Shown here: positions 2,374 through 23,560 of the stretch, in pieces
Layout of the letters: the number at the start of each line of letters is the position of its first letter
Position numbering within the stretch: the stretch's first letter is position 1
DNA from: Candidatus Rifleibacterium sp.
Lineage (GTDB): Bacteria > Muiribacteriota > Ozemobacteria > Ozemobacterales > Ozemobacteraceae
Length of the DNA stretch: 64,000 bases
Reading direction: 5' to 3'
NCBI GenBank assembly: GCA_035352635.1
Contig: DAOPYA010000009.1
Coordinates: 1,745-65,744, forward strand
Program-made: the position numbers and the translations under genes
The notes under the pieces: generated by a model
Databases searched by the model: none
What the model saw: the letters and a program-made list of their open reading frames with translations, nothing else
Told to the model about the DNA's origin: nothing

Positions 2374-2384
2374 AATATTGTTAG

Positions 2385-3393: not shown

Positions 3394-3394
3394 T

Positions 3395-8130: not shown

Positions 8131-9186
8131 ATGAAAAAATTGGTAAAAAAATTAGTCAATGTGCTGCTGATGCTTGCCCTGATTGCCTTGAGTGGCTGTT
8201 CCATACCCGGTTCCACCGGGACCCCGGTCGAAGACGATTCGGTGACGATCAGGGGCACGGTCAACGCCCCTGAAGTTCAAGCCCCTGGCATGCTGGCCGC
8301 GATTGGCGATGCGAATTCCCCAACGGCCTTCGCCAGTTTTTTTGCCAGCTCAAGCTGCCGTATCAATGGTCACGCAGTGGCGTTTTCGTTGAGCAGTGCG
8401 ACCCGCGAACTGATGATCGAAAAAATCCCACCGGCGGCGGCTTATAACGTTGAACTGCAATGCGGCAATCTCGCTCTCAGATCTTTCGCCCCCGGCAATG
8501 GCCGAAACGTTTCGCTGCCGCTGGGTATGTCGCTGCGCAGCACCGCCGACTGGCATCTGCGCGATGCCCTGGCGAGCTCAGCCAATATTGCAATTGACCA
8601 GCTCACCGACTACAGCATTAAAACTACGCTCGTCGATGCGCTGTCGGCCTCGCTTCAGAGCGAACTGAAGAAGGCCGGGGCCTCTTCGCTTTCTTATAAA
8701 AACCTGCTGAAAACTGGTGTCAGCGGCGCGGTGGCCGGCAAAGAACTTGCTGAGTGCCTGACCAGGTCTGGCAACGCCTTTGTATTCAACGGCACCTGGT
8801 CTGGCAAAGTGTATTATTATGCCAGCAACGCGGCTGGCAAGGCGGTGCTTGCCGTTCAGGCCGTGGCAAACCTCACCTGCACGCAGTCGGGCAGCACTGT
8901 TAGCGGTTCATGCAGCATTACGCCAACCGCTGTGGTGCCGCTCGTTGAAAAACCCGGCATTTCTGACCCCTCGAAGACCGCCTTTGCCTTCTCTGGAGCG
9001 GCGGCTGCCTCGTATCTGACCTTTGTGCGCAAGGGTTCGCTCGGGCCGCTGGCGGGCAAAACTCTTGACCGCTGGCTGGTTTTTCCGGTGCGTGGCGGTC
9101 TGGCGGTCAAAGCCGAAAACCTCGATACCAGCTATTTTACAGGGTTGACAACCCGGCCGGGCGAGTTTCTGTTGCAGAAGCAATAG
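8131..9186 (+). CDS. Lipoprotein, unknown function
   Basis: ATG 8131 gives MKKLVKKLVNVLLMLALIALSGC with a lipobox LSGC. The upstream part of the ORF-track frame has no signal peptide. Confidence 0.65.
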   Translation: MKKLVKKLVNVLLMLALIALSGCSIPGSTGTPVEDDSVTIRGTVNAPEVQAPGMLAAIGDANSPTAFASFFASSSCRINGHAVAFSLSSATRELMIEKIPPAAAYNVELQCGNLALRSFAPGNGRNVSLPLGMSLRSTADWHLRDALASSANIAIDQLTDYSIKTTLVDALSASLQSELKKAGASSLSYKNLLKTGVSGAVAGKELAECLTRSGNAFVFNGTWSGKVYYYASNAAGKAVLAVQAVANLTCTQSGSTVSGSCSITPTAVVPLVEKPGISDPSKTAFAFSGAAAASYLTFVRKGSLGPLAGKTLDRWLVFPVRGGLAVKAENLDTSYFTGLTTRPGEFLLQKQ

Positions 9187-9290: not shown

Positions 9291-10418
9291 ATGCTGCTTG
9301 CGGCATGGCTGCTGCCTGCTGCCGGTTCGTTATTTGCCTCGACCCGGCCAGAGGGAAGCCTGATGCCCGTGCCCTTCGTCGAGCGCGAAGAGTCGAATAC
9401 AGATACGCCTTTTGGGCCTTATCGCGAGAAGTCTGCGCAGCGTTTCGTCTACACCCGCAAGACCGAAAACCTCGTTACTGAAATGAATTTCCGGCATGTT
9501 CTTTATAAGGATCTTAACGGAACAGCACCTGAGATGAACTGCCTGCATCAGTTTTCGTTCAAGGGCTATAATATGTCAAGCCCTCTTGAATTCAAGGCCG
9601 GCCGTATTGTGACCGGCAACAACCTTCTTCAGACCGTCGATGGTGTCTCGTGGTTTTATCCATCGGGCAATCGGCTGAAAACCACCGTAGATTTTGGCCG
9701 TATCGCGCCGATCGACATGAAAGGCTCTGCCGGCCAGCCTTCGTTTGCCGAAGGGCGCCTGCATTATTCCTTCAATGACAACGCCTATATGGCGATTAAG
9801 TCGGTTAAGCAGTTCGATGATGCCTTTAACGGGGCGATGCTTGGCTATAATGCTGATGAATTCAGGGTCAGCGGTGAGTATCTCAATGGCGGCGCTACTG
9901 ATACGCTGCACCTGGGGTTGCAGTATTTTGAGGCACGCCGTTTCGATCTGACTTCTGATTATCGGCTGTTTATGAATGACACAACCGACTCTGGCAATAT
10001 GCGGCACAGTGTGGGTCTTGAGAGCGGGCAACTTTATGTTGAGGGTGGCATCGGCAGCCAGTTCTGGTTCAATGGCCCCGAGAAGCCCGATTGCTGGTTT
10101 TATGATGGCAATGTAACTTTTACTTCAAAAAAACGTGACAACGCCAGTCTCGGCTACCTGGTCGAAACCGATAACGCCTCGACGAGTCGAACCATTTATG
10201 GTCGTGCCGAGCGGCGCATTTCGCACAAGACCACTTTTGGCATCGGCGTCGAAGACACCCGCTTCGAAAAAAGCGGTGGCACGGTGCAAAATCTCGAAGG
10301 CCGCCTGAATCGCCGTGTTCAATGGGGCTGGGTTGAATTGTCGGGTGCCGTAATCACTGGCGGTGGCGATTCTGACCTGCAAAAAGACATTCGCCTGCGT
10401 GCCGGCTACGAATTTTAA
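9291..10418 (+). CDS. Putative outer-membrane beta-barrel protein
   Basis: 375 aa with an N-terminal hydrophobic signal. It shows alternating beta-strand-like periodicity and a C-terminal ...LRAGYEF with terminal Phe. Confidence 0.5.
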   Translation: MLLAAWLLPAAGSLFASTRPEGSLMPVPFVEREESNTDTPFGPYREKSAQRFVYTRKTENLVTEMNFRHVLYKDLNGTAPEMNCLHQFSFKGYNMSSPLEFKAGRIVTGNNLLQTVDGVSWFYPSGNRLKTTVDFGRIAPIDMKGSAGQPSFAEGRLHYSFNDNAYMAIKSVKQFDDAFNGAMLGYNADEFRVSGEYLNGGATDTLHLGLQYFEARRFDLTSDYRLFMNDTTDSGNMRHSVGLESGQLYVEGGIGSQFWFNGPEKPDCWFYDGNVTFTSKKRDNASLGYLVETDNASTSRTIYGRAERRISHKTTFGIGVEDTRFEKSGGTVQNLEGRLNRRVQWGWVELSGAVITGGGDSDLQKDIRLRAGYEF

Positions 10419-10644: not shown

Positions 10645-13600
10645 ATGTTTGGTGATACCCTGAAAATCACACTGACCTCTGAATTCGCTAGCAAAGACGC
10701 CATCATTTCTGATGATGCGCACGGCAAATGCGACCGGCTGACCTATCAGCAGTTGACCGATGAGGTGGCCACCATTGCCGGCATGATCAGGGAGGCCGGT
10801 ATCGCCGCCGGTGAGCGGGTTATATTTGTCAGCGAAAATCATTTGTACTGGCTGCCGATTTTTCTTGGTATCACTAATGCCGGTGCCATCGCGGTTCCGA
10901 TTGATGGAAATTGCGCCGTTGAGCGTTTTCATGCCGTCGTTACCGACTGCCGGCCGGCCGGGGTAATCATTTCGCGCAAGTTTGAGAAGCGTTTTGCTGA
11001 ATTCATGCTTTCTGGTTGCGAAGTCAGGGCGACGATCAACCTGTATTTCGACCTTTTCGTCTTCAGCAACGTTTCTGAGACGGCAGTTGCCGCGATTGAA
11101 CCTAAGGCTGATGATACTGCCGCGATTATCTACACCTCTGGCACCACCGGTAAGCCCAAGGGCATCATGCTCAGCCACCGGGCCATCGTTGAATCAATCA
11201 AGCTCGGGCTGGTAATTTCGGGTTACAAGACCGAAGAACGCATGCTGGCGCTCTTGCCATTCACCCATGTTTTTGCCCTGATCGATTCGGGGCTGGTGAT
11301 GCTTGGCTGCCATTCGTCGCTGGTGGTCTGCAACAGCTTCAACCCGGGCGAAATCATGCAGGTGCTCATGAAACACCGTGCCACCTATGTGCTGGCGGTA
11401 CCGCGTCTCGCTGAACTGATGGCCATGGGGTTGATGCAGGCACCCGATATCAAGCTGCCTGGTTTGACCATGATTATCGGAGGGGCCTCGCCTCGCCCTG
11501 AAGTCATGCAATTATTGATCGCCCGTGGCATCAAGACTTTTCAGGGGTTCGGCATGACCGAAACGGCTGCTGGGGTGCTGATTGGCCACGATTGCCCGAT
11601 TGAGTCGGTTGGTCGGCCCCAATGTGGCGTAAGTGTCAGAATCAACGAACCGGTTAACGGAATCGGTGAATTGCTGATTGCCAGCCCGACCTTATTCTCG
11701 GGGGTTTTTGGTCAGCCTGGGCGTGATGAAACCATGTTTATAGACGGTTTTTTCAAAACCGGTGACCTGGCGCAGATGGATGCGGGTGGCAATGTTTATA
11801 TCAAAGGCCGGGCCAAAGAAGTTATTATCTCGGCTTCAGGGTTGAATGTTTACCCTGATGAGCTTGAGCTGCGTCTCGGCGCTCTGCCTTATGCTGAAGA
11901 ATACGTGATTTTCGGTTACTGCGCCGAAGGCCTGGAACTGCCAGCCCTGGCACTGCAGCGCCGCAATGAATTTTTTAAAGACCGCAGTGTCGGCAAGGTG
12001 CGTGATTTTGTCGAAGAAGATATTCGTCAGCGCACGGTCAACTGGCCGACCGCCGAGAAGATTCGCAAGATTTTTATCGTTGATCAGCCGTTGCCGCGTT
12101 CGGCGAGCGCCAAGATCAAACGCTTTGAGGTTGCGGCCATGTTTTGCTCTGAGGCAGCGCCGGTCAAGGCTCAGCCCGAAGAACGGGGCAATGTTCAGCT
12201 TGATGCCAAACTCTTTGAAATGTTTCGTTCTGAAGTAGCGGCTTTTTTGAATGTCGAACCCGGCAAAATCAATCTCAGCACCAGGCTTGATGAATTCATG
12301 ATGCTAGATTCGCTCGGGGTGATTGCTCTGATGATCAGACTCGAGAAACGGTTCACCATCTCTTTTCGAGAGTTGCTGGGCAGCTCGGTGACGACTTTCT
12401 CAGAGGTTTTTTCGTATCTGGCAAAGAGAGTCGATGGCGAAAAGCGCGAACTGGTTCAATCTTCAGAAGCCCCCGGTGGCAGTTTACCGCCGTTGCTTGA
12501 TTTTTCTGAAGCAGCGGTCGAGCGCCGCCAGCAGTTTATTCGCGATCTGACCGGCAATTCTGAATTCAGACTGCCCGTTGCCCCGGCGGTCGATGACTAT
12601 GCCGGTAATATCGAGGGTCTGGTGGGTTTTGCCATGCTGCCGGTCGGTATCTGTGGGCCGCTTAAAGTGGTAGGCCAGAAGGCTGTGGGCGATTTTTATC
12701 TGCCACTCGCTACCACCGAAGGGGCTCTGGTGTCTTCGGTGGCCCGGGGTTGCCAGGTTATCACGCTTTCGGGCGGTGCCGAAGTCAGACTGGTTAATGA
12801 CAGTGTCGTCAGAACGCCGGTTTTTGTTCTTGACTCGCTCGCTGAGCAGGAAAAGTTCTCTCACTGGATAGAAAACAATTTTTCGCGGATCAAGCAGGAA
12901 GCTGAAAAGACTACCAGGCACGGTAAACTCAAAGAAATAGAGCTTTTTCCCATCGGCTGCCAGTTGATTCTGCGCTTCAGCTTCTCGACCGGCGATGCTT
13001 CAGGGCAGAATATGACAACCATCGCGACCCGGGGCGCCGTTGATTATATTCTCAAGTATTATAACGGCCGCATCGATGACTGGTTTCTTGAATCGAACCT
13101 GTCGGGTGACAAGAAGATCAACAGCATTAACTTTACCGGCAATCGCGGCAAAAAGATGGTGGCGGCCTGCACGATACCGGCTTCGCTGGTTAAACAGGTG
13201 CTGCACACCACCCCCGAACGCATGTGCCGCCTGGCCGACCTCTCGATGGTGACTTCAATTCAGTCGCACTCATTTGGTGTGCAGGCGCATTACGCGAACA
13301 CTCTGGCGGCGGTTTATATTGCCACCGGCCAGGACCCGGCCTGCGTAGCAGAGTCGGCGGCTGGCATTACCTATCTGCAGATGCGTGACGGCAATCTGCA
13401 TATCAGCGTTACCCTGCCCGGCATAATGGTTGGTACAGTGGGGGGCGGCACCCGGTTGCCCACCCAGAAGAGTTGCCTTGACCTGATGCAGTGTGCCGGC
13501 TCGGGCAACTCGCAGAAATTCGCCGAAATTCTCGCGGTTGGCGTTCTGGCCGGCGAAATTTCGATCATCGGGGCCATGGCGGCCGATGAATTCACAGATG

Positions 13601-13653
13601 CGCACGCCCGATACGGTCGGGCCGGTGGTTTGAGCACTGGAGCGAAAAGCTGA
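10645..13653 (+). CDS. Tri-domain enzyme: adenylation (ANL) - carrier protein - HMG-CoA-reductase-like reductase
   Basis: 1002 aa with RBS GAGGAG. A-domain motifs: IYTSGTTGKPKG, GFGMTE, GDLAQMDAGGNVYIKGR, SASAKIKR. Carrier Ser in MLDSLGV. The C-terminal ~380 aa carry PLATTEGALV, SGDKKINSINF, IATGQDPACV, TVGGGT and a C-terminal DAH, matching the HMGR E/K/D/H positions. Confidence 0.85.
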   Translation: MFGDTLKITLTSEFASKDAIISDDAHGKCDRLTYQQLTDEVATIAGMIREAGIAAGERVIFVSENHLYWLPIFLGITNAGAIAVPIDGNCAVERFHAVVTDCRPAGVIISRKFEKRFAEFMLSGCEVRATINLYFDLFVFSNVSETAVAAIEPKADDTAAIIYTSGTTGKPKGIMLSHRAIVESIKLGLVISGYKTEERMLALLPFTHVFALIDSGLVMLGCHSSLVVCNSFNPGEIMQVLMKHRATYVLAVPRLAELMAMGLMQAPDIKLPGLTMIIGGASPRPEVMQLLIARGIKTFQGFGMTETAAGVLIGHDCPIESVGRPQCGVSVRINEPVNGIGELLIASPTLFSGVFGQPGRDETMFIDGFFKTGDLAQMDAGGNVYIKGRAKEVIISASGLNVYPDELELRLGALPYAEEYVIFGYCAEGLELPALALQRRNEFFKDRSVGKVRDFVEEDIRQRTVNWPTAEKIRKIFIVDQPLPRSASAKIKRFEVAAMFCSEAAPVKAQPEERGNVQLDAKLFEMFRSEVAAFLNVEPGKINLSTRLDEFMMLDSLGVIALMIRLEKRFTISFRELLGSSVTTFSEVFSYLAKRVDGEKRELVQSSEAPGGSLPPLLDFSEAAVERRQQFIRDLTGNSEFRLPVAPAVDDYAGNIEGLVGFAMLPVGICGPLKVVGQKAVGDFYLPLATTEGALVSSVARGCQVITLSGGAEVRLVNDSVVRTPVFVLDSLAEQEKFSHWIENNFSRIKQEAEKTTRHGKLKEIELFPIGCQLILRFSFSTGDASGQNMTTIATRGAVDYILKYYNGRIDDWFLESNLSGDKKINSINFTGNRGKKMVAACTIPASLVKQVLHTTPERMCRLADLSMVTSIQSHSFGVQAHYANTLAAVYIATGQDPACVAESAAGITYLQMRDGNLHISVTLPGIMVGTVGGGTRLPTQKSCLDLMQCAGSGNSQKFAEILAVGVLAGEISIIGAMAADEFTDAHARYGRAGGLSTGAKS

Positions 13654-13654
13654 T

Positions 13655-14413
13655 ATGAAAACGATTTTTGTGACTTCTGACGTTACCTATGTTAAAGATA
13701 ACTATCTGTCGGTCATTGACCGGGTCACCGACCGGGGCAATCTGCCGGCCGGCATTACCGCGGCCGGAGCCGTAATGATCAAGGTGCCCGAGAAGATACT
13801 TCTGAAAAATATTTTCGGGTTGCTGGCCATCGGTGCCCCGGGGTTCAGCTTTACCCTGTTGCGCAATATGCTGCAGTCGCGGTTAAACGACCCGCGGGTC
13901 AAGCTTCTCAACGAAAGGGGCGTCAGGCTCTTTCGCACCAAGACGGTTAACAGTCAGGCCGCGCTTGAATTTATCGGCGGTCTGGCCCCTGACCTGATAG
14001 TCAATATGCGTACCCGCAACATTTTTCGTAAGCCCGTGCTCGATCTGCCCAAAATCGGTTGTATTAACATTCATCATGGGCTGCTGCCTGACAATCGCGG
14101 CACCATGTGTGACCTGTGGGCCTGGGTCGAAGGCCGGCCCGTAGGTTTCTCAGTGCACTGGATGAACGAAAAGATTGACGACGGGGCGATTATCGAACGC
14201 TGCGAAGTCGATACCAGTGGCTGCCGATCTTATATTGAGATTCCGTATCGTTCAAGTCAACTAGAGGCGCCCTGCCTGCTGAGCTGCCTTGAGCGTATCC
14301 GTCGGCACGGGCGTAATATCGGTTTTCCTAATGTTACGGTTAAAGAAAACTACACCCGCACTCCATCGCCTGCAAAAATAGCCGAGATTCGCCGACGCGG
14401 TCTGAGACTGTAA
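13655..14413 (+). CDS. Formyltransferase-fold protein (Fmt/PurN N-terminal domain-like)
   Basis: 252 aa. NIHHGLLPDNRG matches the H-x-S/G-LLP-x-x-RG motif, followed by IDDGAII. The ATG is 1 nt after the upstream stop. Confidence 0.7.
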   Translation: MKTIFVTSDVTYVKDNYLSVIDRVTDRGNLPAGITAAGAVMIKVPEKILLKNIFGLLAIGAPGFSFTLLRNMLQSRLNDPRVKLLNERGVRLFRTKTVNSQAALEFIGGLAPDLIVNMRTRNIFRKPVLDLPKIGCINIHHGLLPDNRGTMCDLWAWVEGRPVGFSVHWMNEKIDDGAIIERCEVDTSGCRSYIEIPYRSSQLEAPCLLSCLERIRRHGRNIGFPNVTVKENYTRTPSPAKIAEIRRRGLRL

Positions 14414-14527
14414 TAAAACCCGGCCCTCTGGAAGCCTGCCGCTCTGGCCCGGTCTGGCAAACTATCTATTGTCAGTGTGGCGGGTGCGTGGTAACCTGAC
14501 GCTGAGCTTACACTCAGGAGACCATCT

Positions 14528-16231
14528 GTGAATTTATACGACAGGCTTCATAACCAGGCCATCGGTTTTTTTGACGGAAGTGACCCGCGTAATAATGTTG
14601 TTTCTCTGATGCAGCGTCACGTGGTTGAAAGGCCCGATGAGATTGCCTTTATGTTGCCTGAGCGCGATAAACTCCCCAAATGGGGCGATATGGTCGTCAC
14701 CAGTCTGGCACATAAGAAGGTCACTTTTCGGCAGTTTTTCAACCTGGTCTCTCTGGCTGCTTCTGGCCTCAAAAACATCGGCATCGGCCATGGCGACCGG
14801 GTTATTGTTTTTCTGCCCGTGTCGATACCCCTTTATCAGACGATGGCAGCCGTGCAGATGATCGGCGCCAGCGTTGTTTTTCTTGATTCGTGGGCACGCC
14901 GTGACCAGCTTGGGGTAAGTGCCGAAATTGCCGATGCCAGAGCGATGATCAGCTTTGAACAGGCTTTCGACCTTTGCAGGGGTGACCCCCGGTTCGATAA
15001 AATCCCGATCAGGGTCGTTGTCGGCCCGCATCACGGCAAATACACGGCCACTCTCGACCAGCTGCAGAAAAACGAGCCATGCCAGCAGGTCGAAGCGATG
15101 CGAGGCGATGAAACCGCGCTGATCACTTTCGCAACCGGCAGTTCAGGCCGCCCGAAAGGCGCCAGCCGCACCCATGATTTTCTGGCTGCCCAGCACTACG
15201 CTCTGCATGACTGTGTTCCGTACACAGCGGGTGACCTCGACCTGCCCGCTTTCCCGATATTTTCGCTGAATAATCTTGCTGAGGGCGTTATGACAGTAAT
15301 ACCGGTCGTCGATATCGGCCGGCCCTCAGAAAAAGATTCACTGATGCTGGCTAGTCAGATGATTGCGCTCGGCATTACCTGCGCCACTCTATCGCCGTCG
15401 ATGATGGCCGGGCTGGCAAATTTCTGCGAACAGAACAGCGTGGTCATGCCAAAAGTTCGCCGCCTGATCACCGCTGGTGCCCCGATCAGCAACGAAACCC
15501 TTGCCCTGATGAAAAAAGCGGTGCCGGCGGCCGAAATCTGGGTGCTTTATGGCTCGACCGAGGTCGAACCGATCGCCCATATTGAGGCCAACGACATTCT
15601 CAACCCGAAACAGGGTGGTGGCGAGGGGGTTTGTGTCGGCCATTTTGCCGCAGGTCTCGAAACCAGGTTCATTAAAATTCGCAAAGACGCCATAAAGCTG
15701 GTCAACGATGACTGGTCGCAGCTTGAAGTCGCACCGGGTGAGGTTGGCGAACTTCTGGTTGCCGGCCTGCATGTCTGCAAAGGCTATTACAACGATCAAG
15801 AAGCGGTTGAACGCACCAAGGTTGTCGAATCGAACGGCAAGGTCTGGCACCGAACCGGCGATCTGGCTTGTCTTGACAAGGCGCAGAACGTCTGGCTGGT
15901 TGGCCGTGTTCACAACGCCATTGCCCGTGGCGGGCGCCAGCTGTTTCCGGTTCAGGTTGAGATGCTGATGAAGAAAGTGGCTGGCGTTAAGCAGTCAGCT
16001 TTTCTTGGTGTGCCTGACCCTGAACTCGGCGAAAAAGCCTACGCACTCGTTCAGCTGGCTGATGACGCCAAAGCCCGCACCGGCGAGATTCTTAACAATA
16101 TTGCCCGTGAGCTGAAGTCCGCAAAGGTGCCGTTCGACCACCTCAATACCGTTGACGACATCCCCACAGACCCGAGGCATCACAGCAGGGTTGAATATGG
16201 AATTTTGCGTGAGCAGCTTTTTAAGAAATAG
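14528..16231 (+). CDS. ANL-superfamily adenylating enzyme, OleC / fatty-acid-CoA-ligase-family-like
   Basis: 567 aa, GTG start after AGGAGA. Motifs: ITFATGSSGRPKG, YGSTEVEP, TGDLACLD...VWLVGR, and a C-terminal DIPTDPRHHSRVEY. Confidence 0.8.
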   Translation: MNLYDRLHNQAIGFFDGSDPRNNVVSLMQRHVVERPDEIAFMLPERDKLPKWGDMVVTSLAHKKVTFRQFFNLVSLAASGLKNIGIGHGDRVIVFLPVSIPLYQTMAAVQMIGASVVFLDSWARRDQLGVSAEIADARAMISFEQAFDLCRGDPRFDKIPIRVVVGPHHGKYTATLDQLQKNEPCQQVEAMRGDETALITFATGSSGRPKGASRTHDFLAAQHYALHDCVPYTAGDLDLPAFPIFSLNNLAEGVMTVIPVVDIGRPSEKDSLMLASQMIALGITCATLSPSMMAGLANFCEQNSVVMPKVRRLITAGAPISNETLALMKKAVPAAEIWVLYGSTEVEPIAHIEANDILNPKQGGGEGVCVGHFAAGLETRFIKIRKDAIKLVNDDWSQLEVAPGEVGELLVAGLHVCKGYYNDQEAVERTKVVESNGKVWHRTGDLACLDKAQNVWLVGRVHNAIARGGRQLFPVQVEMLMKKVAGVKQSAFLGVPDPELGEKAYALVQLADDAKARTGEILNNIARELKSAKVPFDHLNTVDDIPTDPRHHSRVEYGILREQLFKK

Positions 16232-16297
16232 TTACCCCTCAGCAGCTGCAGCCATCAAGGCTGCAGTTTCATTTTAACCGGTCGACCTGGAGGTTTT

Positions 16298-17218
16298 ATG
16301 GCCTTTATTGCACGCTGGTGGCAGTTTTTAAAAGAGCGTCACGAGCCTTTTGGCATTACATTGATGGTCAGTGCTTTTTTTGCGGCCAGCGCTTTTATGG
16401 CATATCAGCCGGGGCTGCACGCTCCGCCTTGCTGGCGGCGTCTGACAGCCGGTTTTATCGTCGTCTGGCTGGTGTTTCTGCACATGCGCCTGTTCGACGA
16501 GGTAAAAGATTACCATTTTGACCGGGAGCACAACCCGGGGCGGCCCCTGGCACGTGGCCTGATCAGCGTAGGTGAGTTTTCTGCGATGACGCTGGTCTGT
16601 CTGCTGGCTGAACTAGGGCTTTCTGCGATTATGGCCTGGCCGATGCTGCCGGGTCTGGTCATGGTTCTGTGCTTTACCCTGTTGATGCGTATGGAATTTT
16701 TTATAGGCGACTGGCTGCGCCCCCAACTAGAGCTTTACGCGATCACTCACACGTTTTCGGCGGCAATGATCAGCATGCTGATTTACACGGTTGTCTGTTT
16801 TTCTGATTTCGCGGCTGTTGACCGGGGCATGCTGCTCTACGCTCTCGGCAACTGGTTTGTCTTTAATGTTTTTGAATTCGGCCGCAAGACTTTTGCGGTT
16901 GAAGAAGAGCGGGCGGGTGTTGATTCATATTCAGCACGCCTGCGGCCCTGGGGTGCGGTGCTTCTGTTGCTGGTCAACGTCGCTGCCGCCTACGCCGCTT
17001 TCTATTTTGCTGCCACCGCGAAATTTGCCGCCGTGGTTGACTGGCGCCTGCTTGGGCCGGCGGCCGGTGTGACTCTGCTGGTTGCCCTGGCCGGTGCCGT
17101 TTATGCTGCCCAACCAACCAAAGCTTTTGCCAAGCTTTATCGCGGGGTGGTAACCCTGTATCTGCTGGCTTACCCGGCTGCCATTGCCGCGTCGATTTAT
17201 CTGCTCGTTTATCGCTGA
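16298..17218 (+). CDS. UbiA-superfamily-like polytopic membrane protein
   Basis: 306 aa with about 8 hydrophobic segments. The first Asp-rich motif FDEVKDYHFDREHNPGRPLARG (DxxxDxxxD...RPL..G) is present. I could not identify a second Asp-rich motif. Confidence 0.6.
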   Translation: MAFIARWWQFLKERHEPFGITLMVSAFFAASAFMAYQPGLHAPPCWRRLTAGFIVVWLVFLHMRLFDEVKDYHFDREHNPGRPLARGLISVGEFSAMTLVCLLAELGLSAIMAWPMLPGLVMVLCFTLLMRMEFFIGDWLRPQLELYAITHTFSAAMISMLIYTVVCFSDFAAVDRGMLLYALGNWFVFNVFEFGRKTFAVEEERAGVDSYSARLRPWGAVLLLLVNVAAAYAAFYFAATAKFAAVVDWRLLGPAAGVTLLVALAGAVYAAQPTKAFAKLYRGVVTLYLLAYPAAIAASIYLLVYR

Positions 17219-17314
17219 AGGCAGTTGCCGAAAATGTACGGCAAAGATTTGGAGTTTGCGGGTTTGTCGGTTACAATTATTGTCTGATTCAAAGATATTC
17301 AAGAGGAACCTGAC

Positions 17315-20077
17315 ATGTATATAGTTTCATGCGCCAACCGTAATTTTGCAGAGGTAATGCCACTTGTGGGCGGCAAGGGCGGAAACCTGCTCAAGCTCAC
17401 CCAGGCCGGGGCCGATGTGCCGGCTTTCGCAGTGCTGACCCGCGAGTGCTTTGATGAGTTCATCGCCTCATTTCGTGATGAATTCAACCAGAAGCTTCAG
17501 GCTATCGACTGCTCGGCACCAGATAAAATTGCCAGAACTGCCGGCGAACTGCGTGAGTGCATGCTGCGCCACCCGATTCCAGAGCGTATCAGAACCGAGT
17601 TATTCGCAACCATGCGCAGTCTGTTGAAAGCTGACAGCTTTGTGGCGGTGCGCTCTTCGGCTCTTGGTGAAGATTCAAAAGAATTTTCATACGCCGGAAT
17701 GCTTGATACATGCCTTTTCAGACGCACAGACGCTGAAGTCTGTGAAGCGGTGCTGACCTGCTGGTCATCGATTTTTTCTGACCGGGCGGTGGCCTACCGC
17801 AATATGCGCGGCATCGCGCAGAACGATGTGTCGATGGCAGTCGTGGTTCAAGAGATGATCGATGGGGTCGCTTCAGGGGTTACCTTCACGGTTAACCCGA
17901 CCACCAGTTATGAAGACGAGATTCTCATCACTTCGGTTTTCGGGCTGGGTGAGGGGTTGGTGTCTGGTACCCTCGATTCAGACCAGTTTATTTGCCTGAA
18001 ACAGGATACTTACCCGGTGATCGAGACGAAGCTTGCCAATAAAGTTGAAAAGCTGGTTTTCGACCGCAAGAATAATTTTGGAACTCAGACAGTCGCCGTC
18101 GCTGATGATCAGGCCGGCAAGCCGAGTCTCAGTGACGCGCAGTTGCGCAGCGTTGCAACGGTTTGCCATCGTATCGAAGGCTCTTATCACAATGTTCCGC
18201 AGGATATCGAATGGACGATCGACAGCGAGGGCAGGGTACGGATTCTGCAGGCCCGCCCCATCACCACCATCGAGCGCCCGGTTCCGTCAGAGCGCCTGTA
18301 CACCACGATCTGGGATAACTCGAACATCGTCGAAAGCTATTCTGGCGTCACGACTCCATTGACTTTTTCGTTCGCTATCTATGCTTATCATCGCGTCTAT
18401 GTGCAGTTTTGCCAGGTTCTGATGGTGCCAGACGATGAGATTAAGGCCAACGATTTTGCCTTTGCCAACATGCTTGGCTTTTTGAACGGCCGCATCTATT
18501 ACAACCTGAAGAACTGGTATCGGCTGATCTCGGTGCTGCCGGGTTACAGCTATAACAGCCGTTTCATGGAAGGGATGATGGGCGTCAAGGCGAGCTACGA
18601 GAAGACGGTCAAGCAAAAACCGGTTGGCTTTTTTCAGAAATATTTTTACGAACTGCCTCGCCTGGCACTGGTCGGCGCCAATCTCGCCTACCGCTTCTGG
18701 CGCACCGACGCTGAAGTGAAGAATTTCATGGATGTTTATCAGGCGATGTACAACAAATACAAAGACTTTGACTTTGCCAAAGCGCCGGCGCACCGTCTGG
18801 TCGATATTTTTAACGAACTCGACAACACGGTATTGGCGAACTGGAAAGCGCCGATCATCAACGATTTCATGGCGATGATTTTTTATGGCATTCTTGACGC
18901 GTTGATGAAAAAATGGGATCTTAACGCAGACCCGGCCCTGAAGAACGACCTGCTCGCCGGCCAGGGCAATGTTGAAAGCACCCTGCCGCTGCGCACCATT
19001 CAGAAGATCGCCCGGTTCGTCTCGGCTGACGCCGGTCTCAAAGAGCTGTTCAAAACCCGCAGCGCCCCGCAATTAAAGGAAATGTTTATTCCGCTGCCCG
19101 GTAACGACCGACCGGCCGGGCATCAGCAGCTTGGCGCCCAGATTGCCGAATATCTTGAGAAATACGGTTATCGTGCCATGTGTGAGCTGAAGCTTGAAGA
19201 GCCTTCAATGAACGAGCGCCCTGAGTTTCTTTTCGACATGATCAAGAATTACTCCGCCGCCCCCCTGCCAGAAGAAGGCGATACTGGCGACAAGGAACGC
19301 CGGGTGCGCGAGGCCGCCGAACTCAAAGTCAGAACGCTTCTCGGCGACAGTGGCTTATTCTTTGGGCTGTTTAAAAAGCTTGATGTGCTGATGTTCGTTG
19401 CTAACTGGGCGAAGAAGGCCATGGCAGTGCGTGAGTATCAGCGCTTTGCCCGCACCAGAATGTATGGGCTGGTCAGCCGCATCTATAAAGGTTTTGGCCA
19501 GAGATTCGTCGAACGTGGCCTGCTCGACAAGGTTGATGATATTTTTTATCTGACCATGGAAGAAACCCTCGAGTATGTTACCGGCACCGCCCGCAGCCAG
19601 AAACTTCGCGAACTTGCTGCCCTGCGTCGTGCCGAGTTCGATGGCTATCGCAGCATGGATGAATTGCCAGACCGCATCGAGACCACCGGCATCACCTATT
19701 GCAACGATCTGACACGGGGCATGTTGCCCGCCATCGAGGGTGACGACGACCCGAATATTATTCGCGGCATTGGCGGCTGTTCTGGCAAGGTCACCGGCCC
19801 GGTCAAGGTTATTCTCAACCCAGGTGATGACATGTCGCTCAATGGTGAAATTCTGGTGGCGGCCCGCACTGACCCGGGCTGGGTGCCGTTATTTGCCACG
19901 GCTTCGGCCTTGCTGATCGAACGCGGCAGCATGCTGTCGCATTCGGTTATCGTGGCACGCGAACTTGGTTTGCCGGCGGTTGTGGGTGCCACCGGCGTCA
20001 CTAAAAAACTTAAAACAGGCGATGTTGTTGAGCTTGATGGCACGACCGGCATCGTTAAAGTAATTTCACGCGCCTGA
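17315..20077 (+). CDS. PEP-utilising enzyme family protein with rifampin-phosphotransferase-like architecture
   Basis: 920 aa. It has an N-terminal PPDK_N-type ATP-grasp (VGGKGGNLLKLTQAGADVPAF), a long central domain, and a C-terminal swivel His domain (ERGSMLSHSVIVARELGLPAVVG). Confidence 0.85.
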   Translation: MYIVSCANRNFAEVMPLVGGKGGNLLKLTQAGADVPAFAVLTRECFDEFIASFRDEFNQKLQAIDCSAPDKIARTAGELRECMLRHPIPERIRTELFATMRSLLKADSFVAVRSSALGEDSKEFSYAGMLDTCLFRRTDAEVCEAVLTCWSSIFSDRAVAYRNMRGIAQNDVSMAVVVQEMIDGVASGVTFTVNPTTSYEDEILITSVFGLGEGLVSGTLDSDQFICLKQDTYPVIETKLANKVEKLVFDRKNNFGTQTVAVADDQAGKPSLSDAQLRSVATVCHRIEGSYHNVPQDIEWTIDSEGRVRILQARPITTIERPVPSERLYTTIWDNSNIVESYSGVTTPLTFSFAIYAYHRVYVQFCQVLMVPDDEIKANDFAFANMLGFLNGRIYYNLKNWYRLISVLPGYSYNSRFMEGMMGVKASYEKTVKQKPVGFFQKYFYELPRLALVGANLAYRFWRTDAEVKNFMDVYQAMYNKYKDFDFAKAPAHRLVDIFNELDNTVLANWKAPIINDFMAMIFYGILDALMKKWDLNADPALKNDLLAGQGNVESTLPLRTIQKIARFVSADAGLKELFKTRSAPQLKEMFIPLPGNDRPAGHQQLGAQIAEYLEKYGYRAMCELKLEEPSMNERPEFLFDMIKNYSAAPLPEEGDTGDKERRVREAAELKVRTLLGDSGLFFGLFKKLDVLMFVANWAKKAMAVREYQRFARTRMYGLVSRIYKGFGQRFVERGLLDKVDDIFYLTMEETLEYVTGTARSQKLRELAALRRAEFDGYRSMDELPDRIETTGITYCNDLTRGMLPAIEGDDDPNIIRGIGGCSGKVTGPVKVILNPGDDMSLNGEILVAARTDPGWVPLFATASALLIERGSMLSHSVIVARELGLPAVVGATGVTKKLKTGDVVELDGTTGIVKVISRA

Positions 20078-20108
20078 GAGCGCCAAATTCACATCGGAGG
20101 CCTTGATC

Positions 20109-21203
20109 ATGAGTGCATCGGTAGTTTACAGCAATGTCTGGGAAGACCCCGAATTGAACCGGGTTTCCCTGAAAGTCAAACCCGGCCAGAATGTTCTGTC
20201 TATAACTTCGGGCGGTTGTAACTCGCTTAGTCTGCTGCTTGAAGACCCGGCGAAGCTTATTTCGATCGATCTGAACCCGGCCGCCCTTGCCATGCTTGAA
20301 TACAAGCGTGCCGCCATCATTGAACTCGGGTATGACGAATTCATCGACGCGCTGGGCACGCCGTTTCTTTTTAAACCCGAAAAGTCGCCTGAATACCGGG
20401 TCGAACTCTACAACCGCATTCGCAAGCACCTGCCGGCTTCGGCCGCCCAGTTCTGGGATGACCATCTGCACCAGGTCAAGAGCGGCATCATGATGTGCGG
20501 CAAGGTCGAGAAATTCTTCAAGTTCTATCGCACCGTGCTTGGCTGGCTCTACGGCAAAGATGAAATCATGAAACTGTTCAAGGCTGAAACTCTCGAACAG
20601 CAACGAGAGGTCTACGCCGGGTTCCGCAAGCAACGCTGGAATGCTTTGCATCGCCTGTTGCTTAACCGCAGTGTTCTGAGTCTGGTCAAAGGCGCTCATT
20701 CGTTTGCCCAGGTTGACTTTGAAGACTTCGCCGGCAACCTGAACCGCAAACGAACTCTCGGTATGACCCGCTTTTTCAACCCTGACAACTATTTTATGTG
20801 CCTGCTGCTGCTCGGCGGTCACTACCATGAGCGTGGCATGTCGCCCTATCTGCTGCGTGAAAACTACCCGAAACTGAAGAAGAACATCGGCAACCTTGAA
20901 ATCTTTCAGGGAACAATCGGCGATGTGCTCAAAAAAGACGGGCCGGGCAGTTATGACCGCTTCAATCTTTCGAATATCTTTGAATGGATGACCAACGAAG
21001 TGTTCAATGGCATCATCAGAGAGGTGCTTGAACTGTCACGACCGGGTGCCCGCCTGGCCTGGCGTTATACCTTCGCCAGACCCCGCGAACTCGACGCCCA
21101 GAACCTTGATCGCCTTGTTTATGAACCTGAGCTTTCTGAACAACTGTTCAAACAGGATCGGGCGTTTATCTACGAAAGCTTTCACGTCTACCACCTTAAA
21201 TAA
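20109..21203 (+). CDS. DUF3419 / BtaA-like SAM-dependent 3-amino-3-carboxypropyl transferase
   Basis: ATG 20109 lies 8 nt after GGAGG. YSNVWEDPELNRVSL, VLSITSGGCNSLSLLL and SIDLNPAALAMLEYK fit the BtaA-family N-terminal signature. Confidence 0.75.
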   Translation: MSASVVYSNVWEDPELNRVSLKVKPGQNVLSITSGGCNSLSLLLEDPAKLISIDLNPAALAMLEYKRAAIIELGYDEFIDALGTPFLFKPEKSPEYRVELYNRIRKHLPASAAQFWDDHLHQVKSGIMMCGKVEKFFKFYRTVLGWLYGKDEIMKLFKAETLEQQREVYAGFRKQRWNALHRLLLNRSVLSLVKGAHSFAQVDFEDFAGNLNRKRTLGMTRFFNPDNYFMCLLLLGGHYHERGMSPYLLRENYPKLKKNIGNLEIFQGTIGDVLKKDGPGSYDRFNLSNIFEWMTNEVFNGIIREVLELSRPGARLAWRYTFARPRELDAQNLDRLVYEPELSEQLFKQDRAFIYESFHVYHLK

Positions 21204-21228
21204 CCGGTTTTTTTAAACTCTTTTAAAC

Positions 21229-21260
21229 AGCGGTTCTGCATTTATGCAGAACCGCTTTTC
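21229..21260 (+). terminator. Rho-independent terminator after the BtaA-like gene
   Basis: Perfect 12-bp stem agcggttctgca / tgcagaaccgct with loop ttta, followed by tttc. Confidence 0.7.
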
Positions 21261-21329
21261 GCATGACGGGTATTACCCTGTGGGCTGATTTGTGTTACAA
21301 TTAGCTTGAGTGAACGACTTGGAGGCTTT

Positions 21330-22100
21330 ATGCGAACAATCAGACTGATAACTTGCTTGATGGTGATGCTGCTGGCCGGTGCGGTTGCCGCAATGGCACT
21401 AACCGCCCAGGAAGTCCTGCAAAAAGTTGAAGATCGTTATATCGGCAAAACTTCGAAAGCTCAGGTCCAAATGGATCTGATCGATAAATCAGGCGGGGTT
21501 CGCGAGCGCAAGATGGTAATTTCCCGCCGCAAGGTTGATGGCAGCAACAAAGACAACTTTATTCATTTCGTTGCGCCGCCCGACATTCGCAATACCACCT
21601 ATCTGGTCAACGAAAAGAACCGTGAACGCCAGAAATGGATCTACCTCTCAGCTTTCAAGAATACCCGCAGAATTCTTGCCGAAGACTACGCCATGGCTTT
21701 CGTATCGAGTGACTTTACCTACGAAGACATGGATGACATCAGGGCCGACGATTATGTTGCCAGCGACCTCAAAGAAGAAAAGCTCGGTGACAAAGACGTG
21801 TATTCGATTTCGGTGAGCAAAAAAGATGCTAACACGAGCTATGCCAAAGTAATCATGAAGGTGTGCAAGAATACCTTTGTAGTGCTGCGTTCCGAAATGT
21901 ATGACAAAAAAGCCCCCGAAAAAATGGTCAAAGAAATGACTGCGGCAAATCTTGAACAGATCCAGGAAATCTGGACCCCGAAAGAAGTCGTTATGAAAGA
22001 CCTCGTCAAGGGTACGACGACCAGCCTCAAAACAGCCAAAATCGCCTACGATCTTGAATTGACTGATGAAGAGTTCTCACAGCGCAACATGGAAAAGTGA
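21330..22100 (+). CDS. LolA-like outer-membrane lipoprotein-sorting family protein
   Basis: ATG 21330 follows GGAGG. Signal peptide MRTIRLITCLMVMLLAGAVAAMA. AQEVLQKVEDRY...MDLIDKSGGVRERKMVISRRK...FIHFVAPPDIRNTTYLV is typical of this family. Confidence 0.7.
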   Translation: MRTIRLITCLMVMLLAGAVAAMALTAQEVLQKVEDRYIGKTSKAQVQMDLIDKSGGVRERKMVISRRKVDGSNKDNFIHFVAPPDIRNTTYLVNEKNRERQKWIYLSAFKNTRRILAEDYAMAFVSSDFTYEDMDDIRADDYVASDLKEEKLGDKDVYSISVSKKDANTSYAKVIMKVCKNTFVVLRSEMYDKKAPEKMVKEMTAANLEQIQEIWTPKEVVMKDLVKGTTTSLKTAKIAYDLELTDEEFSQRNMEK

Positions 22101-22107
22101 TGGAATC

Positions 22108-22155
22108 ATAAAATCAAGAATCGCAGACCTTCGGGTCTGCGATTCTTGATTTTAT
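22108..22155 (+). terminator. 22-bp perfect-stem hairpin (terminator/attenuator or RNA-processing site)
   Basis: ataaaatcaagaatcgcagacc (22108-22129), loop ttcg, then ggtctgcgattcttgattttat (22134-22155). It lies 7 nt after the LolA-like stop. Confidence 0.6.
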
Positions 22156-22216
22156 GGGCGTAATTATTGCGCGGCCGGGTGCCGATAATTCAGATAAGAA
22201 ATATCAACCCGGAGGC

Positions 22217-23560
22217 ATGCAGATCAGCAGAACTCTGCCGATAAAGCGTTGGCGGCCTGGTAGCGGGCCGGCATTGCAGATCGCACTTGTGGCGATCACT
22301 TTTTTGCTGCTGTTGCCGGCTGTTCTGCCCGTTGGTGCGGCTGACGAATGGGATACCTGGGGCGACAGCGGCGAAAAGACTGGTGAACCTGTAATAAAGC
22401 GCCCATTTATTTCGGGCTGGTGGAACTGGCAGTACAACGAATTTTCTTCGTTTGATCAGGGTCGGGTCAACTTCGAAAAGGAGTTGGGCAACGGCAGTAA
22501 ACTGCTCACCGGCCTCAGAATCAACTATTACACTGAAGATAACAACAAGAAATGGAAGGTTTTTCCGGGGGAAAACTATTACTTCTGCAAGGCCGGCGAT
22601 CTTGATTTCAAGGCCGGCATGCTCATCGAGAACATTGGCAGCGGCGACAAGTTTTCGTTTGTCGACAAGCTCAATTCGCGCTATTTCCATAACGGGCTGG
22701 CCAATGATTATGACCGCGATAAAAAAGAGGTACCCGGCGTCAGGGCAACCTGGTACATTAACCGGCATTTCAAATTTTCGGGGCATTATCTGCCGTATTT
22801 TACCGCCAGTGAGTTCCCGACTATTTACAGTAAATGGGCTTATGCGATTCACAAGTCGCTTGCCAGCGAGCTTTTATTTAAGGGCGGGGTGTACAACGCC
22901 GCGAGTGATGCGAGCTTTGACCCTCAGTTTCACGTGGAACTCAGCTCTGTATACCCTAAGATCGAGATGCGGTTTCATTATCTCAGATTAAAAGAGCGTT
23001 TGCCGGTTATCAGTCAAGACAAGCCGGGAATTTTTAACGGCAGCTACCCCCTCGACGAGACTTTTGCGGTGAATGGCAACCTGACCCTGAGCAAGGAACT
23101 GCTGTTGCGCTACGAGTTGGCCTGGAGTCGTGATCGCACCTGGACAACCTATGAAGAGGGGCATATCGGGCAAAAGTTTGTCAGCGATCATGTTGGCATG
23201 TTGTTTGGCACTGACCGCAACCTGCCGAATAACTTTTACGTTAATGTACAGGGCATGGTGTCGCATGTTCCTGATTTTAAGGCAACCACGCCGTTTCAAC
23301 TTAATGAAACCGAGTATCTCAGTTCGTTGCAGATGCGGCAGAATTTTCGCCAGGATCGCCTGCAGATCGAATTAAACGTCTTGAAGAATTTTTCGTCGGG
23401 CGAGTATGTGCTGACGCCGAAAATTCAGATAATCAAGTCAGACTACCTGACTTTTATGCTTGGTTATCAGATGAACGGCGAGGGTGCAGAAACTCTTGGC
23501 CCGGTAGGCCAATTTTCAGAGAACAACACCGCTGTTTTTGAGACCCGCGTTACTTTTTGA
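22217..23560 (+). CDS. Putative outer-membrane beta-barrel protein
   Basis: The start is uncertain: ATG 22217 gives MQISRTLPIKRWRPGSGPALQIALVAITFLLLLPAVLPVGAA, while ATG 22154 lies inside the hairpin. It is rich in Tyr/Gly/Asn beta-strand repeats and ends ...FETRVTF with terminal Phe. Confidence 0.55.
   Translation: MQISRTLPIKRWRPGSGPALQIALVAITFLLLLPAVLPVGAADEWDTWGDSGEKTGEPVIKRPFISGWWNWQYNEFSSFDQGRVNFEKELGNGSKLLTGLRINYYTEDNNKKWKVFPGENYYFCKAGDLDFKAGMLIENIGSGDKFSFVDKLNSRYFHNGLANDYDRDKKEVPGVRATWYINRHFKFSGHYLPYFTASEFPTIYSKWAYAIHKSLASELLFKGGVYNAASDASFDPQFHVELSSVYPKIEMRFHYLRLKERLPVISQDKPGIFNGSYPLDETFAVNGNLTLSKELLLRYELAWSRDRTWTTYEEGHIGQKFVSDHVGMLFGTDRNLPNNFYVNVQGMVSHVPDFKATTPFQLNETEYLSSLQMRQNFRQDRLQIELNVLKNFSSGEYVLTPKIQIIKSDYLTFMLGYQMNGEGAETLGPVGQFSENNTAVFETRVTF

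Follow-up and report, generated by a model that had tools for sequence, protein, structure and literature searches.

We analyzed a cluster of predicted biosynthetic and export genes in a 64-kb stretch of DNA from Candidatus Rifleibacterium sp. (contig DAOPYA010000009.1); the whole stretch is called the window here, and positions are counted from its first letter. In the ORF (open reading frame) list of the window, the eight ORFs of 10645-23560 are co-directional, all on the + strand. The first encodes a tri-domain protein (A-T-HMGR) in which an adenylation (A) domain and a carrier (T) domain are fused to a class-I 3-hydroxy-3-methylglutaryl (HMG)-CoA reductase (HMGR) domain. The genes and features of the locus are as follows, with protein positions in amino acids (aa) and profile matches from hidden Markov models (HMMs).

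10645..13653, + strand: tri-domain A-T-HMGR; adenylation domain at aa 1-505, carrier domain at aa 528-578 (Ser556 in LDSLG), class-I HMGR domain at aa 624-992.
13655..14413, + strand: single-domain formyltransferase (FT); Formyl_trans_N, E 6.5e-15; 1-nt gap after A-T-HMGR.
14528..16231, + strand: stand-alone adenylate-forming ligase, AMP2; AMP-binding and AMP-binding_C; PRK09274 family, relative of OleC.
16298..17218, + strand: UbiA-superfamily intramembrane transferase; 306 aa; NCBIfam prenyltransferase PRK13592, E 3e-10.
17315..20077, + strand: Rph/PigC-type phosphoenolpyruvate (PEP)-utilizing dikinase; ATP-grasp, substrate domain, C-terminal swivel His876.
20103 (TTG)..21203, + strand: DUF3419 (BtaA-like) S-adenosylmethionine (SAM)-dependent transferase; likely start ATG 20109; PF11899, E 5e-65.
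21306..22100, + strand: LolA-like periplasmic lipid/lipoprotein carrier; PF17131, E 3e-44, weak DUF1329 match; signal peptide.
22154..23560, + strand: putative outer-membrane beta-barrel partner of the LolA-like protein; C-terminal ...ETRVTF, 14% aromatic residues; no HMM match.
8131..9186, + strand: predicted lipoprotein; ORF open from TTG 7981, likely start ATG 8131; signal peptide, LSG/C lipobox.
9291..10418, + strand: putative outer-membrane beta-barrel, orf9291; C-terminal ...RLRAGYEF, 12.5% aromatic residues; no HMM match.
16244..16268, + strand: terminator-like or attenuator-like hairpin between the AMP2 and UbiA-like genes; 10-bp stem with 6 GC pairs, then TCATTTTAAC.
21229..21256, + strand: strong hairpin 3' of the DUF3419 gene; 12-bp stem, AGCGGTTCTGCA-TTTA-TGCAGAACCGCT, short T tail; read directly from the sequence.

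Intergenic gaps across the first six genes are 1, 114, 66, 96, and 25 nt, and the next two are 102 and 53 nt; the gap before the DUF3419 gene measures 25 nt from TTG 20103 and 31 nt from ATG 20109. Independent gene calls on European Nucleotide Archive (ENA) contigs with an identical protein give the same genes, with the DUF3419 start at ATG 20109. The GC content of the cluster (0.528) is close to that of the window (0.514). Given the 1-nt gap, FT is probably translationally coupled to A-T-HMGR. The original prediction, made from the letters without database searches, had listed these eight ORFs, their gaps, and the hairpin at 21229, all of which are borne out (its 31-nt gap holds from ATG 20109), and Pfam/NCBIfam profile or fold searches uphold its family calls. 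Its statement that the first strong terminator comes only at 21229 stands in part: the hairpin there is real, but a terminator-like hairpin already occurs at 16244-16268. The 21229-21256 hairpin does not appear in the consensus scan output because its T tail has fewer than five T. An Rfam search for a regulatory RNA that would name a ligand gave zero matches in the window and seven representative loci.

The window proteins were placed by tblastn on 18 distinct tri-domain loci (L019 duplicates L001). A-T-HMGR and FT are adjacent in 17 of these 18, and the UbiA-like, AMP2, Rph-like, DUF3419, and LolA-like genes are variably present. All five recur in L012, whose tri-domain protein is only 44% identical; this locus also has an MMPL transporter, a YegS-type lipid kinase, and a LolA-like/barrel pair, and an alpha/beta-hydrolase gene separates FT from AMP2. 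In one metagenome-assembled genome, the A-T-HMGR–FT–hydrolase group and the UbiA–kinase–DUF3419 group lie on different contigs, so the two halves of the cluster co-occur even when unlinked. A second, divergent set in a Riflebacterium (L088, 5800-12700) includes a DUF3419 gene (36% identical), a lipid kinase, a hydrolase, and an MMPL gene, with a 531-aa HMGR on the opposite strand; this set suggests paralogous systems within the phylum.

A genome scan seeded with the tri-domain alignment recovered 65 stand-alone class-I HMGR loci, in which partner genes (UbiA-like, Rph-like, DUF3419, and AMP ligase) were counted within 10 kb. Near the 29 HMGRs from outside the Vibrionaceae and Colwelliaceae, at least one partner is found in 26, at least three in 22, and all four in 18. 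The other 36 loci, from Vibrionaceae/Colwelliaceae (L022-L084; Vibrio, Photobacterium, Aliivibrio), have 0 partners at that distance, and these orphan HMGRs may be remnants of the cluster. HMGR and all four partners lie within 10 kb in loci from at least eight phyla, often in overlapping reading frames. The phylum-level spread includes Bacteroidota, Planctomycetota, Verrucomicrobiota, Acidobacteriota, and Chlamydiota, plus Geobacter. Carriers include Dyadobacter, Spirosomataceae, Chitinophagaceae, Flavobacteriales, Mariniblastus, Pirellulaceae, Luteolibacter, Victivallales, Acidobacteriaceae, Parachlamydiales, Geobacter, Fibrobacterota, "Muproteobacteria", and "Tritonobacter".

Full operons are seen in L086, L087, L089, and L090; those around distant DUF3419 and UbiA-like homologues are co-directional and, as in L087, include a stand-alone HMGR. 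The order in L087 is HMGR–Rph-like–MMPL–DUF3419–thioester-reductase-type short-chain dehydrogenase/reductase (SDR)–lipid kinase–FT–hydrolase–AMP ligase–UbiA–LolA-like–barrel-like–WbqC–methyltransferase. L086 and L090 resemble it; L090 holds DUF3419, FT, UbiA, and Rph-like genes and adds a hydrolase::ligase fusion and a module of an ATP-binding cassette (ABC)/FtsX transporter with a LolA-like protein. Orthogroup (OG) analysis of 44 loci distinguishes two architectures. Type I has the order HMGR–UbiA–Rph-like–DUF3419–OG5–OG6–AMP ligase. Type II occurs in Riflebacteria, L086, L087, and L090, has neither OG5 nor OG6, and carries FT, lipid kinase, hydrolase, and export genes as variable accessories; within it, the A-T fusion occurs in Riflebacteria. 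This fusion is lineage-specific, with HMGR free-standing elsewhere. OG5, a polytopic membrane protein, gives a single weak match to CTP_transf_1, and profile searches of the PDB and NCBIfam with OG5 found no match. Its consensus (TRKxVH…, DAxAAxxGxxYG…KSLEGS, DNLxIP) presumably resembles the dolichol/phytol-kinase branch of the CTP_transf_1 family. Lipid kinases are recurrent accessories, either as YegS-type enzymes or as OG5 with its weak CTP_transf_1 match.

Gene content is therefore conserved far beyond the host phylum, which refutes random adjacency. The idea that unrelated genes adjoin by chance, with no common pathway, can draw on gaps of about 100 nt, on the two internal hairpins, and on the unrelated genes that interrupt the cluster in L005, L009, L010, and L016. 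It is effectively eliminated by the cross-phylum co-occurrence: the same four to five families lie near HMGR in 22 to 26 of the 29 non-Vibrionaceae loci from many phyla, gene fusions join members, and all genes are co-directional. The original prediction had staked its case on conservation of the neighborhood in related genomes, and the gene set indeed co-occurs in dozens of loci from many phyla. These comparisons support the view that the cluster genes form a conserved functional unit.

A-T-HMGR matches the Pfam families AMP-binding (E 7e-61), PP-binding (E 8e-5), and HMG-CoA_red (E 1e-108). The P-loop TSGTTGxPKG, the A10 lysine (Lys490), Ser556 in LDSLG, and all HMGR motifs are invariant in 10 diverse homologues. 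The C-terminal domain is HMGR-fold, with no match to NAD_binding_4 (the SDR-type R domain) in the protein; it aligns to the archaeal class-I HMGR 6hr7 with 303 bits and retains TTEG, RG(C/A), (S)GDKK, RGK, (A/G)HxxN, GQD, and the C-terminal His. Of these, the catalytic residues (Glu of TTEG, Lys of DKK, Asp of GQD, and the C-terminal His) are kept in 15-16 fused and 27 stand-alone homologues. By correspondence with human HMGR, we take these motifs to contain the catalytic Glu/Lys/Asp/His together with the residues that bind the carboxylate and hydroxyl of HMG. The domain scores below the TIGR00533 equivalog cutoff (348.6 versus 441.8 bits), and the stand-alone L087 homologue scores 359 bits.

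The signatures GDASGQNM (versus GDAMGMNM), NxSGDKK, RGKK, and GQDxAC are common to the fused, cluster-linked, and Vibrionaceae HMGRs and do not occur in archaeal or plant enzymes; we regard these three groups as a distinct bacterial class-I subfamily. In an unbootstrapped neighbor-joining tree, the fused HMGR domains form one clade that is sister to all stand-alone bacterial HMGRs, and the Vibrionaceae orphans are nested within the cluster-linked clade. Seven positions separate fused from free HMGRs in an alignment, without a clear interpretation. At 90% identity, full-length A-T-HMGRs group into about 55 clusters, with 41-83% identity to the query, and the named ones are from Candidatus Riflebacteria, Rifleibacteriota, or Ozemobacter. 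Beyond them, scores drop sharply to ElbD-like A-ACP-acyltransferase proteins (ACP, acyl carrier protein) that match the A domain only. An exhaustive search of 1.84 billion representative proteins yielded about four full-length representative clusters. Five longer A-T-HMGR-like fusions (P0362, P0364, P0366, P0379, and P0397; 1043-1498 aa) have A domains 22-26% identical to that of the window; a G(L/I)DSI carrier motif is present in four and missing from P0362, and two have about 400 extra aa after HMGR.

Among the nearest solved relatives of the A domain are several dicarboxylate ligases (malonyl-CoA, oxalyl-CoA, o-succinylbenzoate), as well as synthetases for feruloyl-CoA and fatty-acyl-CoA. 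The retained HMG-site motifs and the dicarboxylate-ligase relatives therefore favor a small HMG-like acid over a fatty acid, and the substrate of A-T-HMGR is more likely the former than a long fatty acid. A fatty-acid substrate was considered and judged less likely on the same two grounds. The early proposal that a fatty or other carboxylic acid is activated, tethered, and reduced is thus narrowed, with the fatty acid the less likely choice and a small HMG-like acid favored. Since the HMGR is fused here to A and carrier domains, it should act on a protein-bound thioester and not on HMG-CoA. No HMG-CoA synthase or mevalonate kinase is found among the ORFs scanned in the window, nor any other mevalonate-pathway gene in the cluster loci with scanned genes or precomputed Pfam calls.

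The closest solved relatives of FT are the sugar N-formyltransferases WbkC (5vys), Rv3404c, and VioF; ArnA and Fmt are also related. Its Asn-His-Asp triad (Asn138, His140, Asp175-176) is conserved in 18 orthologues. This proximity to sugar N-formyltransferases and the intact triad lead us to expect a real amine acceptor. OG6, the last Type I orthogroup before the ligase, is a GNAT protein in six of its eight members, and FT and GNAT substitute for each other in otherwise equivalent clusters. One locus, L091, pairs FT with the Type I membrane protein OG5, so the FT/GNAT exchange is independent of the rest of the cluster. Such mutual replacement is expected if both enzymes cap an amine introduced by DUF3419. 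It was suggested at the outset that the head-group amine could be N-formylated or N-acylated, and the mutually exclusive FT and GNAT genes support this.

AMP2 is found in 26 cluster loci, and its P-loop, YGSTE, GD, and GR motifs are conserved in 26 orthologues. Its best NCBIfam model is PRK09274 (349 bits) and its second best is OleC (233 bits), both below cutoff; against two OleC models it scores 233 and 178 bits, where the cutoffs are 900 and 850. The initial description of AMP2 as OleC-like therefore needs qualification: it is an adenylating enzyme related to OleC, but PRK09274 fits better. An alpha/beta-hydrolase lies directly upstream of the AMP ligase in many loci, although it is generic, without a specific OleB signal, and in L090 (7594-10008) the two are fused in an 804-aa protein (hydrolase aa 9-225, ligase aa 225-796). 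Type I clusters and the window have no hydrolase.

These features bear on an alternative in which the cluster encodes a non-canonical route from mevalonate to isoprenoids, which we consider unlikely. HMGR would make mevalonate, to be phosphorylated by the Rph-like dikinase alone or together with a lipid kinase, and the OleC-like ligase (with or without the hydrolase) would remove the carboxylate via a beta-lactone, as OleC/OleB do, to give isopentenyl phosphate or the alcohol; the UbiA-like protein would then use a prenyl donor, and DUF3419 and FT would decorate the acceptor. Every HMG-site motif is kept in HMGR, mevalonate is a beta-hydroxy acid and so of OleC's substrate class, and the OleC beta-lactone synthetase is the second-best family for AMP2. 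The position of the hydrolase directly upstream of the ligase in many loci, and its fusion to it in L090, match the order of OleB-OleC fusions. Most carrier phyla use the methylerythritol phosphate (MEP) pathway, and HMGR would otherwise be an orphan there. However, AMP2 falls far short of the OleC cutoff (233 bits against 900) and is better described by PRK09274, the hydrolase carries no OleB-specific signal and is missing from Type I clusters and from the window, and in L086 and L087 the SDR belongs to the thioester-reductase type and is not OleD-like. No cluster contains an HMG-CoA synthase or an isomerase. This scheme leaves no role for SAM or for amine capping, and it does not account for the need for an A-T module to load free HMG. 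An Ole-type reading of the accessory genes was likewise set aside, as neither hydrolase nor SDR is specifically OleB- or OleD-like, and it survives only within this rival.

The UbiA-like protein itself has no Pfam match and its NCBIfam prenyltransferase match is weak; PF01040 is detected on its orthologues. Its AlphaFold (AF2) model (predicted local distance difference test score, pLDDT, 91) matches 6m31, 7bpu, 4od4, and 4tq4 in Foldseek with probability 1.0 and template-modeling (TM) scores of 0.6-0.7. Top matches are digeranylgeranylglyceryl phosphate (DGGGP) synthase (6m31/7bpu), ApUbiA, AfUbiA, UBIAD1, and the phosphoribosyltransferase Rv3806c, at TM 0.5-0.7. The first Asp motif, D67ExxD71xxxD75, followed by RPLxRG, is invariant. 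The Rph-like dikinase matches the Pfam families PPDK_N (E 1e-82) and PEP-utilizers (E 2e-23), with Rph_4th detected on an identical protein and on orthologues; its best solved relative is Listeria Rph (5fbs/5hv1, 248 bits). It scores below all curated cutoffs (NF004881, 798/883; RedH, 393/1350; PigC, 340/1300; Rph, 328/999 bits). His876, in ERGSxLSHS, and a highly conserved middle (substrate) domain are found in 32 orthologues.

In the DUF3419 protein, the SAM motif SIxSGGxN and Asp56 are conserved. Its AF2 model (pLDDT 93.7) shows a large helical insertion alongside a class-I SAM-binding core and weakly resembles class-I SAM methyltransferases; a search for a solved relative found none. The gene directly follows the Rph-like gene in the window, L005, L006, L010, L085, and L086; other loci have it at a different place in the cluster. 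In P0381 (L094, 1-2563), an 805-aa protein with both Pfam domains and a linker of about 40 aa, the two enzymes are naturally fused (HMGR::DUF3419), which ties reduction to the SAM-dependent step.

The BtaA relationship raises the question of whether DUF3419 is a classical betaine or homoserine lipid synthase that acts on ordinary diacylglycerol beside unrelated operons (A-T-HMGR/FT and UbiA/kinase), which seems improbable. DUF3419 is the BtaA family, and some sources name homologues SAM:diacylglycerol aminocarboxypropyl transferase; the A-T-HMGR/FT pair and the UbiA/kinase/DUF3419 trio can also sit apart in distant Riflebacteria. Yet the identity of the window protein to generic BtaA-like proteins is only about 30-35%, and DUF3419 co-occurs with HMGR, UbiA, Rph-like, and AMP ligase genes across many phyla, often in overlapping frames, besides being fused to HMGR in P0381. 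The window has no BtaB. PEMT fusions of DUF3419 occur only in distant homologues of 30-35% identity, and no methyltransferase, BtaB-type or fused, is present in the window cluster, in agreement with the initial observation that a BtaB-type N-methyltransferase gene is missing.

Genes for predicted envelope proteins flank the enzymes. ENA contigs call the lipoprotein from 8131; it has no HMM match, and homologues precede the cluster in L009 and L010 alone, which makes it a peripheral member. It does precede the cluster, as first noted, with the lipobox following Met 8131. Orthologues of orf9291 are directly upstream of A-T-HMGR in eight loci, and orf9291 is the usual upstream neighbor of A-T-HMGR in Riflebacteria. 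A TonB-dependent receptor gene lies between the two in L005 (23-1648), L006 (7738-9609), and L010 (8019-9890), where the window has a 226-nt gap. The LolA-like gene adjoins the cluster in L005, L006, L010, L012, L086, L087, and L090. The putative barrel at 22154-23560 has orthologues in L006 and L012 and remote profile matches (E 7e-8 in L087, E 2e-5 in L090) to the product of the gene after LolA-like, which likewise ends in an aromatic residue. A 529-aa secreted protein (23550-25139, - strand; no HMM match) overlaps the end of this barrel gene by 11 nt, and its homologues lie beside the barrel in L006 and directly after A-T-HMGR in L008, the one locus without FT. Export modules recur in the clusters as LolA-like/putative barrel pairs, MMPL proteins, or ABC transporters with a MacB/FtsX-type permease, a pattern that supports the outer-membrane delivery proposed from the window.

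These modules could instead serve the export or uptake of a small molecule that is secreted or periplasmic, for example a signal or a metallophore of the opine or nicotianamine kind, and not of a membrane lipid. Aminocarboxypropyl transfer and carboxylate activation would then build a polar scaffold, handled by the barrels, the LolA-like protein, and MMPL. We judge this about as unlikely as the mevalonate route. The predicted HMGR substrate is small and polar, SAM-derived aminocarboxypropyl transfer is used in metallophore biosynthesis, AMP ligases often make amide bonds in siderophore pathways, and a TonB-dependent receptor adjoins the cluster in the three loci named above. Against this, the clusters repeatedly include two integral-membrane enzymes (UbiA-like and OG5) and lipid kinases of the YegS type, traffic of lipids or lipoproteins is the typical task of LolA-like and MMPL/Lol-type ABC-FtsX modules, and the sole characterized DUF3419 relatives act on a lipid, diacylglycerol.

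Other parts of the window are of separate interest. Positions 1-4000 form a low-GC patch (0.41-0.44 versus 0.51) dense with toxin-antitoxin-type genes, including AbiEi/AbiEii (1293-2057), NTP_transf_2/Polbeta, and HTH/RelE-like genes, and may be a small mobile or defense islet upstream of a MiaB-like radical-SAM gene. A multihaem cytochrome c7/c3-type protein is encoded at 25036-25857, beside an M20 peptidase gene just downstream of the cluster, and is probably unrelated to it. A giant ORF of 3685 aa (28791-39848, - strand) has Gly_rich_2 (aa 1704-1951) as its sole Pfam match.

The domain identities, intact motifs, linkage, gene swaps, and fusions described above are observations, and from them we infer a substrate, an order of steps, and a product. 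We put at about even the chance that the region at ~8131-23560 is the Riflebacteria Type II version of a conserved cluster that builds and exports an envelope amphiphile by a five-step route. In the first step, the A domain would adenylate a small HMG-like carboxylic acid and load it as a thioester on the phosphopantetheine of Ser556, and the fused class-I HMGR domain would consume two NAD(P)H in reducing the thioester to a primary alcohol; elsewhere among the phyla, this reduction would take place on a CoA thioester, by a free-standing enzyme from the same HMGR subfamily. In the second step, the BtaA-like DUF3419 enzyme would place a 3-amino-3-carboxypropyl (homoserine) group from SAM on a hydroxyl of the intermediate. 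FT would then cap the new alpha-amine with formate from N10-formyl-tetrahydrofolate, and GNAT would acylate it equivalently in other phyla. In the fourth step, the Rph-type dikinase would phosphorylate a hydroxyl via His876, with a lipid kinase where present, the UbiA-like enzyme would use the (di)phosphate-activated partner to bond a hydrophobic anchor, and AMP2, with the hydrolase where present, would activate a further carboxylate. Finally, the LolA-like carrier and barrel proteins would bring the product to the outer membrane, a task that may fall to MMPL or ABC-FtsX in sister clusters. The product is most likely an HMGR-made alcohol with an N-capped aminocarboxypropyl (homoserine) group and a UbiA-installed anchor that is exported.

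Several observations weigh against this proposal. AMP2 is absent from the closest relatives, L005, L006, and L010; in distant Riflebacteria only the A-T-HMGR/FT pair remains together; and L090 and L091 have no HMGR within 10 kb. A search of the rest of the window for a hydrolase and a lipid kinase turned up only housekeeping genes. The HMG-binding motifs imply a hydrophilic substrate, which leaves the hydrophobic part of the product unaccounted for and the role of the UbiA-like protein uncertain; in that protein, the second DxxxD is replaced by a conserved E193xxR196K197 and E203E204. The methyltransferase-like fold of the DUF3419 model makes methyl transfer possible, so the enzyme may transfer a methyl instead of an aminocarboxypropyl group. 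The fusion P0381 rests on one 2.5-kb contig and may be an assembly artifact. The hairpin at 16244 may also divide the transcript.

A broader proposal is offered tentatively, with somewhat less than even prospects. A clade of non-mevalonate HMGRs may make the alcohol acceptor for a BtaA-like transferase in a multi-phylum pathway of at least seven genes, yielding N-formyl- or N-acyl-homoserine-ether lipids with a UbiA-installed anchor; A-T-HMGR would be a new HMGR-fold four-electron acid reductase, and the long-puzzling orphan HMGRs of bacteria that use the MEP pathway, such as Vibrio, would be remnants. If so, the orphan bacterial class-I HMGRs of organisms without a mevalonate pathway would gain a defined pathway, and a new class of envelope lipid or amphiphile would exist in at least eight phyla, including the cultured Dyadobacter, Luteolibacter, and Geobacter. 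The hypothesis is directly testable with available strains, since cultured carriers include Dyadobacter psychrotolerans AR-3-6, D. soli DSM 25329, and Luteolibacter sp. AS25.

Literature searches within one library found no published description of this cluster and, as the original prediction had stated, no characterized pathway with this gene combination. In the Lipocone paper, HMGR and UbiA appear only in unrelated neighborhoods. We view the cluster as a specialized envelope-lipid or metabolite gene cluster assembled from known enzyme families, with a pathway not previously characterized.

The closest biochemical parallel to the DUF3419 step is the diacylglyceryltrimethylhomoserine (DGTS) pathway of BtaA/BtaB (Rhodobacter sphaeroides; BTA1 in algae and fungi), in which BtaA places a 3-amino-3-carboxypropyl group on a lipid hydroxyl. 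Both systems have a DUF3419 enzyme and a second enzyme that alters the new amine. In the window, which is without BtaB, the amine modifier would be FT, or GNAT in other phyla, and DUF3419 has HMGR, UbiA-like, Rph-like, and AMP-ligase genes around it, which DGTS synthesis does not require; its acceptor is probably not ordinary diacylglycerol. The UbiA-like protein shares the UbiA fold and first Asp-rich motif with the UbiA superfamily and archaeal DGGGP synthase, but its similarity to the latter is very low (phmmer E 0.012 to 6m31), its second Asp motif is ExxRK, and the geranylgeranylglyceryl phosphate (GGGP) synthase and glycerol-1-phosphate (G1P) dehydrogenase are not present. The clustering of alcohol or lipid kinases with a UbiA-type enzyme also recalls phytol salvage (VTE5/VTE6), in which an alcohol is converted to a phosphate, then a diphosphate, and transferred.

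The Rph-like enzyme shares its ATP-grasp domain, substrate domain (Rph_4th), and C-terminal swivel His with Rph and the prodiginine ligases PigC and RedH; unlike them, its orthogroup has its own conserved middle domain and lies in a biosynthetic context, not one of resistance or pigment. The OleBCD system has in common with the cluster an OleC-related ligase, preceded in many loci by an alpha/beta-hydrolase and fused to it in one. It differs in that the cluster has no OleA thiolase, low OleC scores, a hydrolase that is not OleB-like, and an SDR of the thioester-reductase type; among the scanned window ORFs, no thiolase, hydrolase, or SDR equivalent to OleA, OleB, or OleD was found. The export genes resemble Lol/MMPL modules, including DUF1329/DUF1302-like pairs, in that a LolA_like protein is followed by a putative outer-membrane barrel and sister clusters carry MMPL or ABC-MacB/FtsX, although the window LolA-like protein is not an orthologue of LolA itself (17-20 bits with NCBIfam LolA models).

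The HMGR domain has the fold and all the catalytic and HMG-site motifs of the class-I HMGRs of the mevalonate pathway, but it belongs to a separate bacterial subfamily and is fused to A and carrier domains. In this it resembles the A-T-R carboxylic acid reductases (CAR, fungal ATRR, and myxobacterial ElbD), which activate an acid by adenylation, bind it to phosphopantetheine, and then reduce the resulting thioester. Our literature searches found no precedent for an HMGR-fold terminal reductase on an A-T line. Where those enzymes have an SDR-type R domain, the window protein has an HMGR-fold reductase predicted to carry out a four-electron conversion of thioester to alcohol. If the proposal is correct, the HMGR-fold terminal reductase would join the carrier-protein-dependent acid reductases, with interest for biocatalysis, as it would take an acid to an alcohol in one enzyme.

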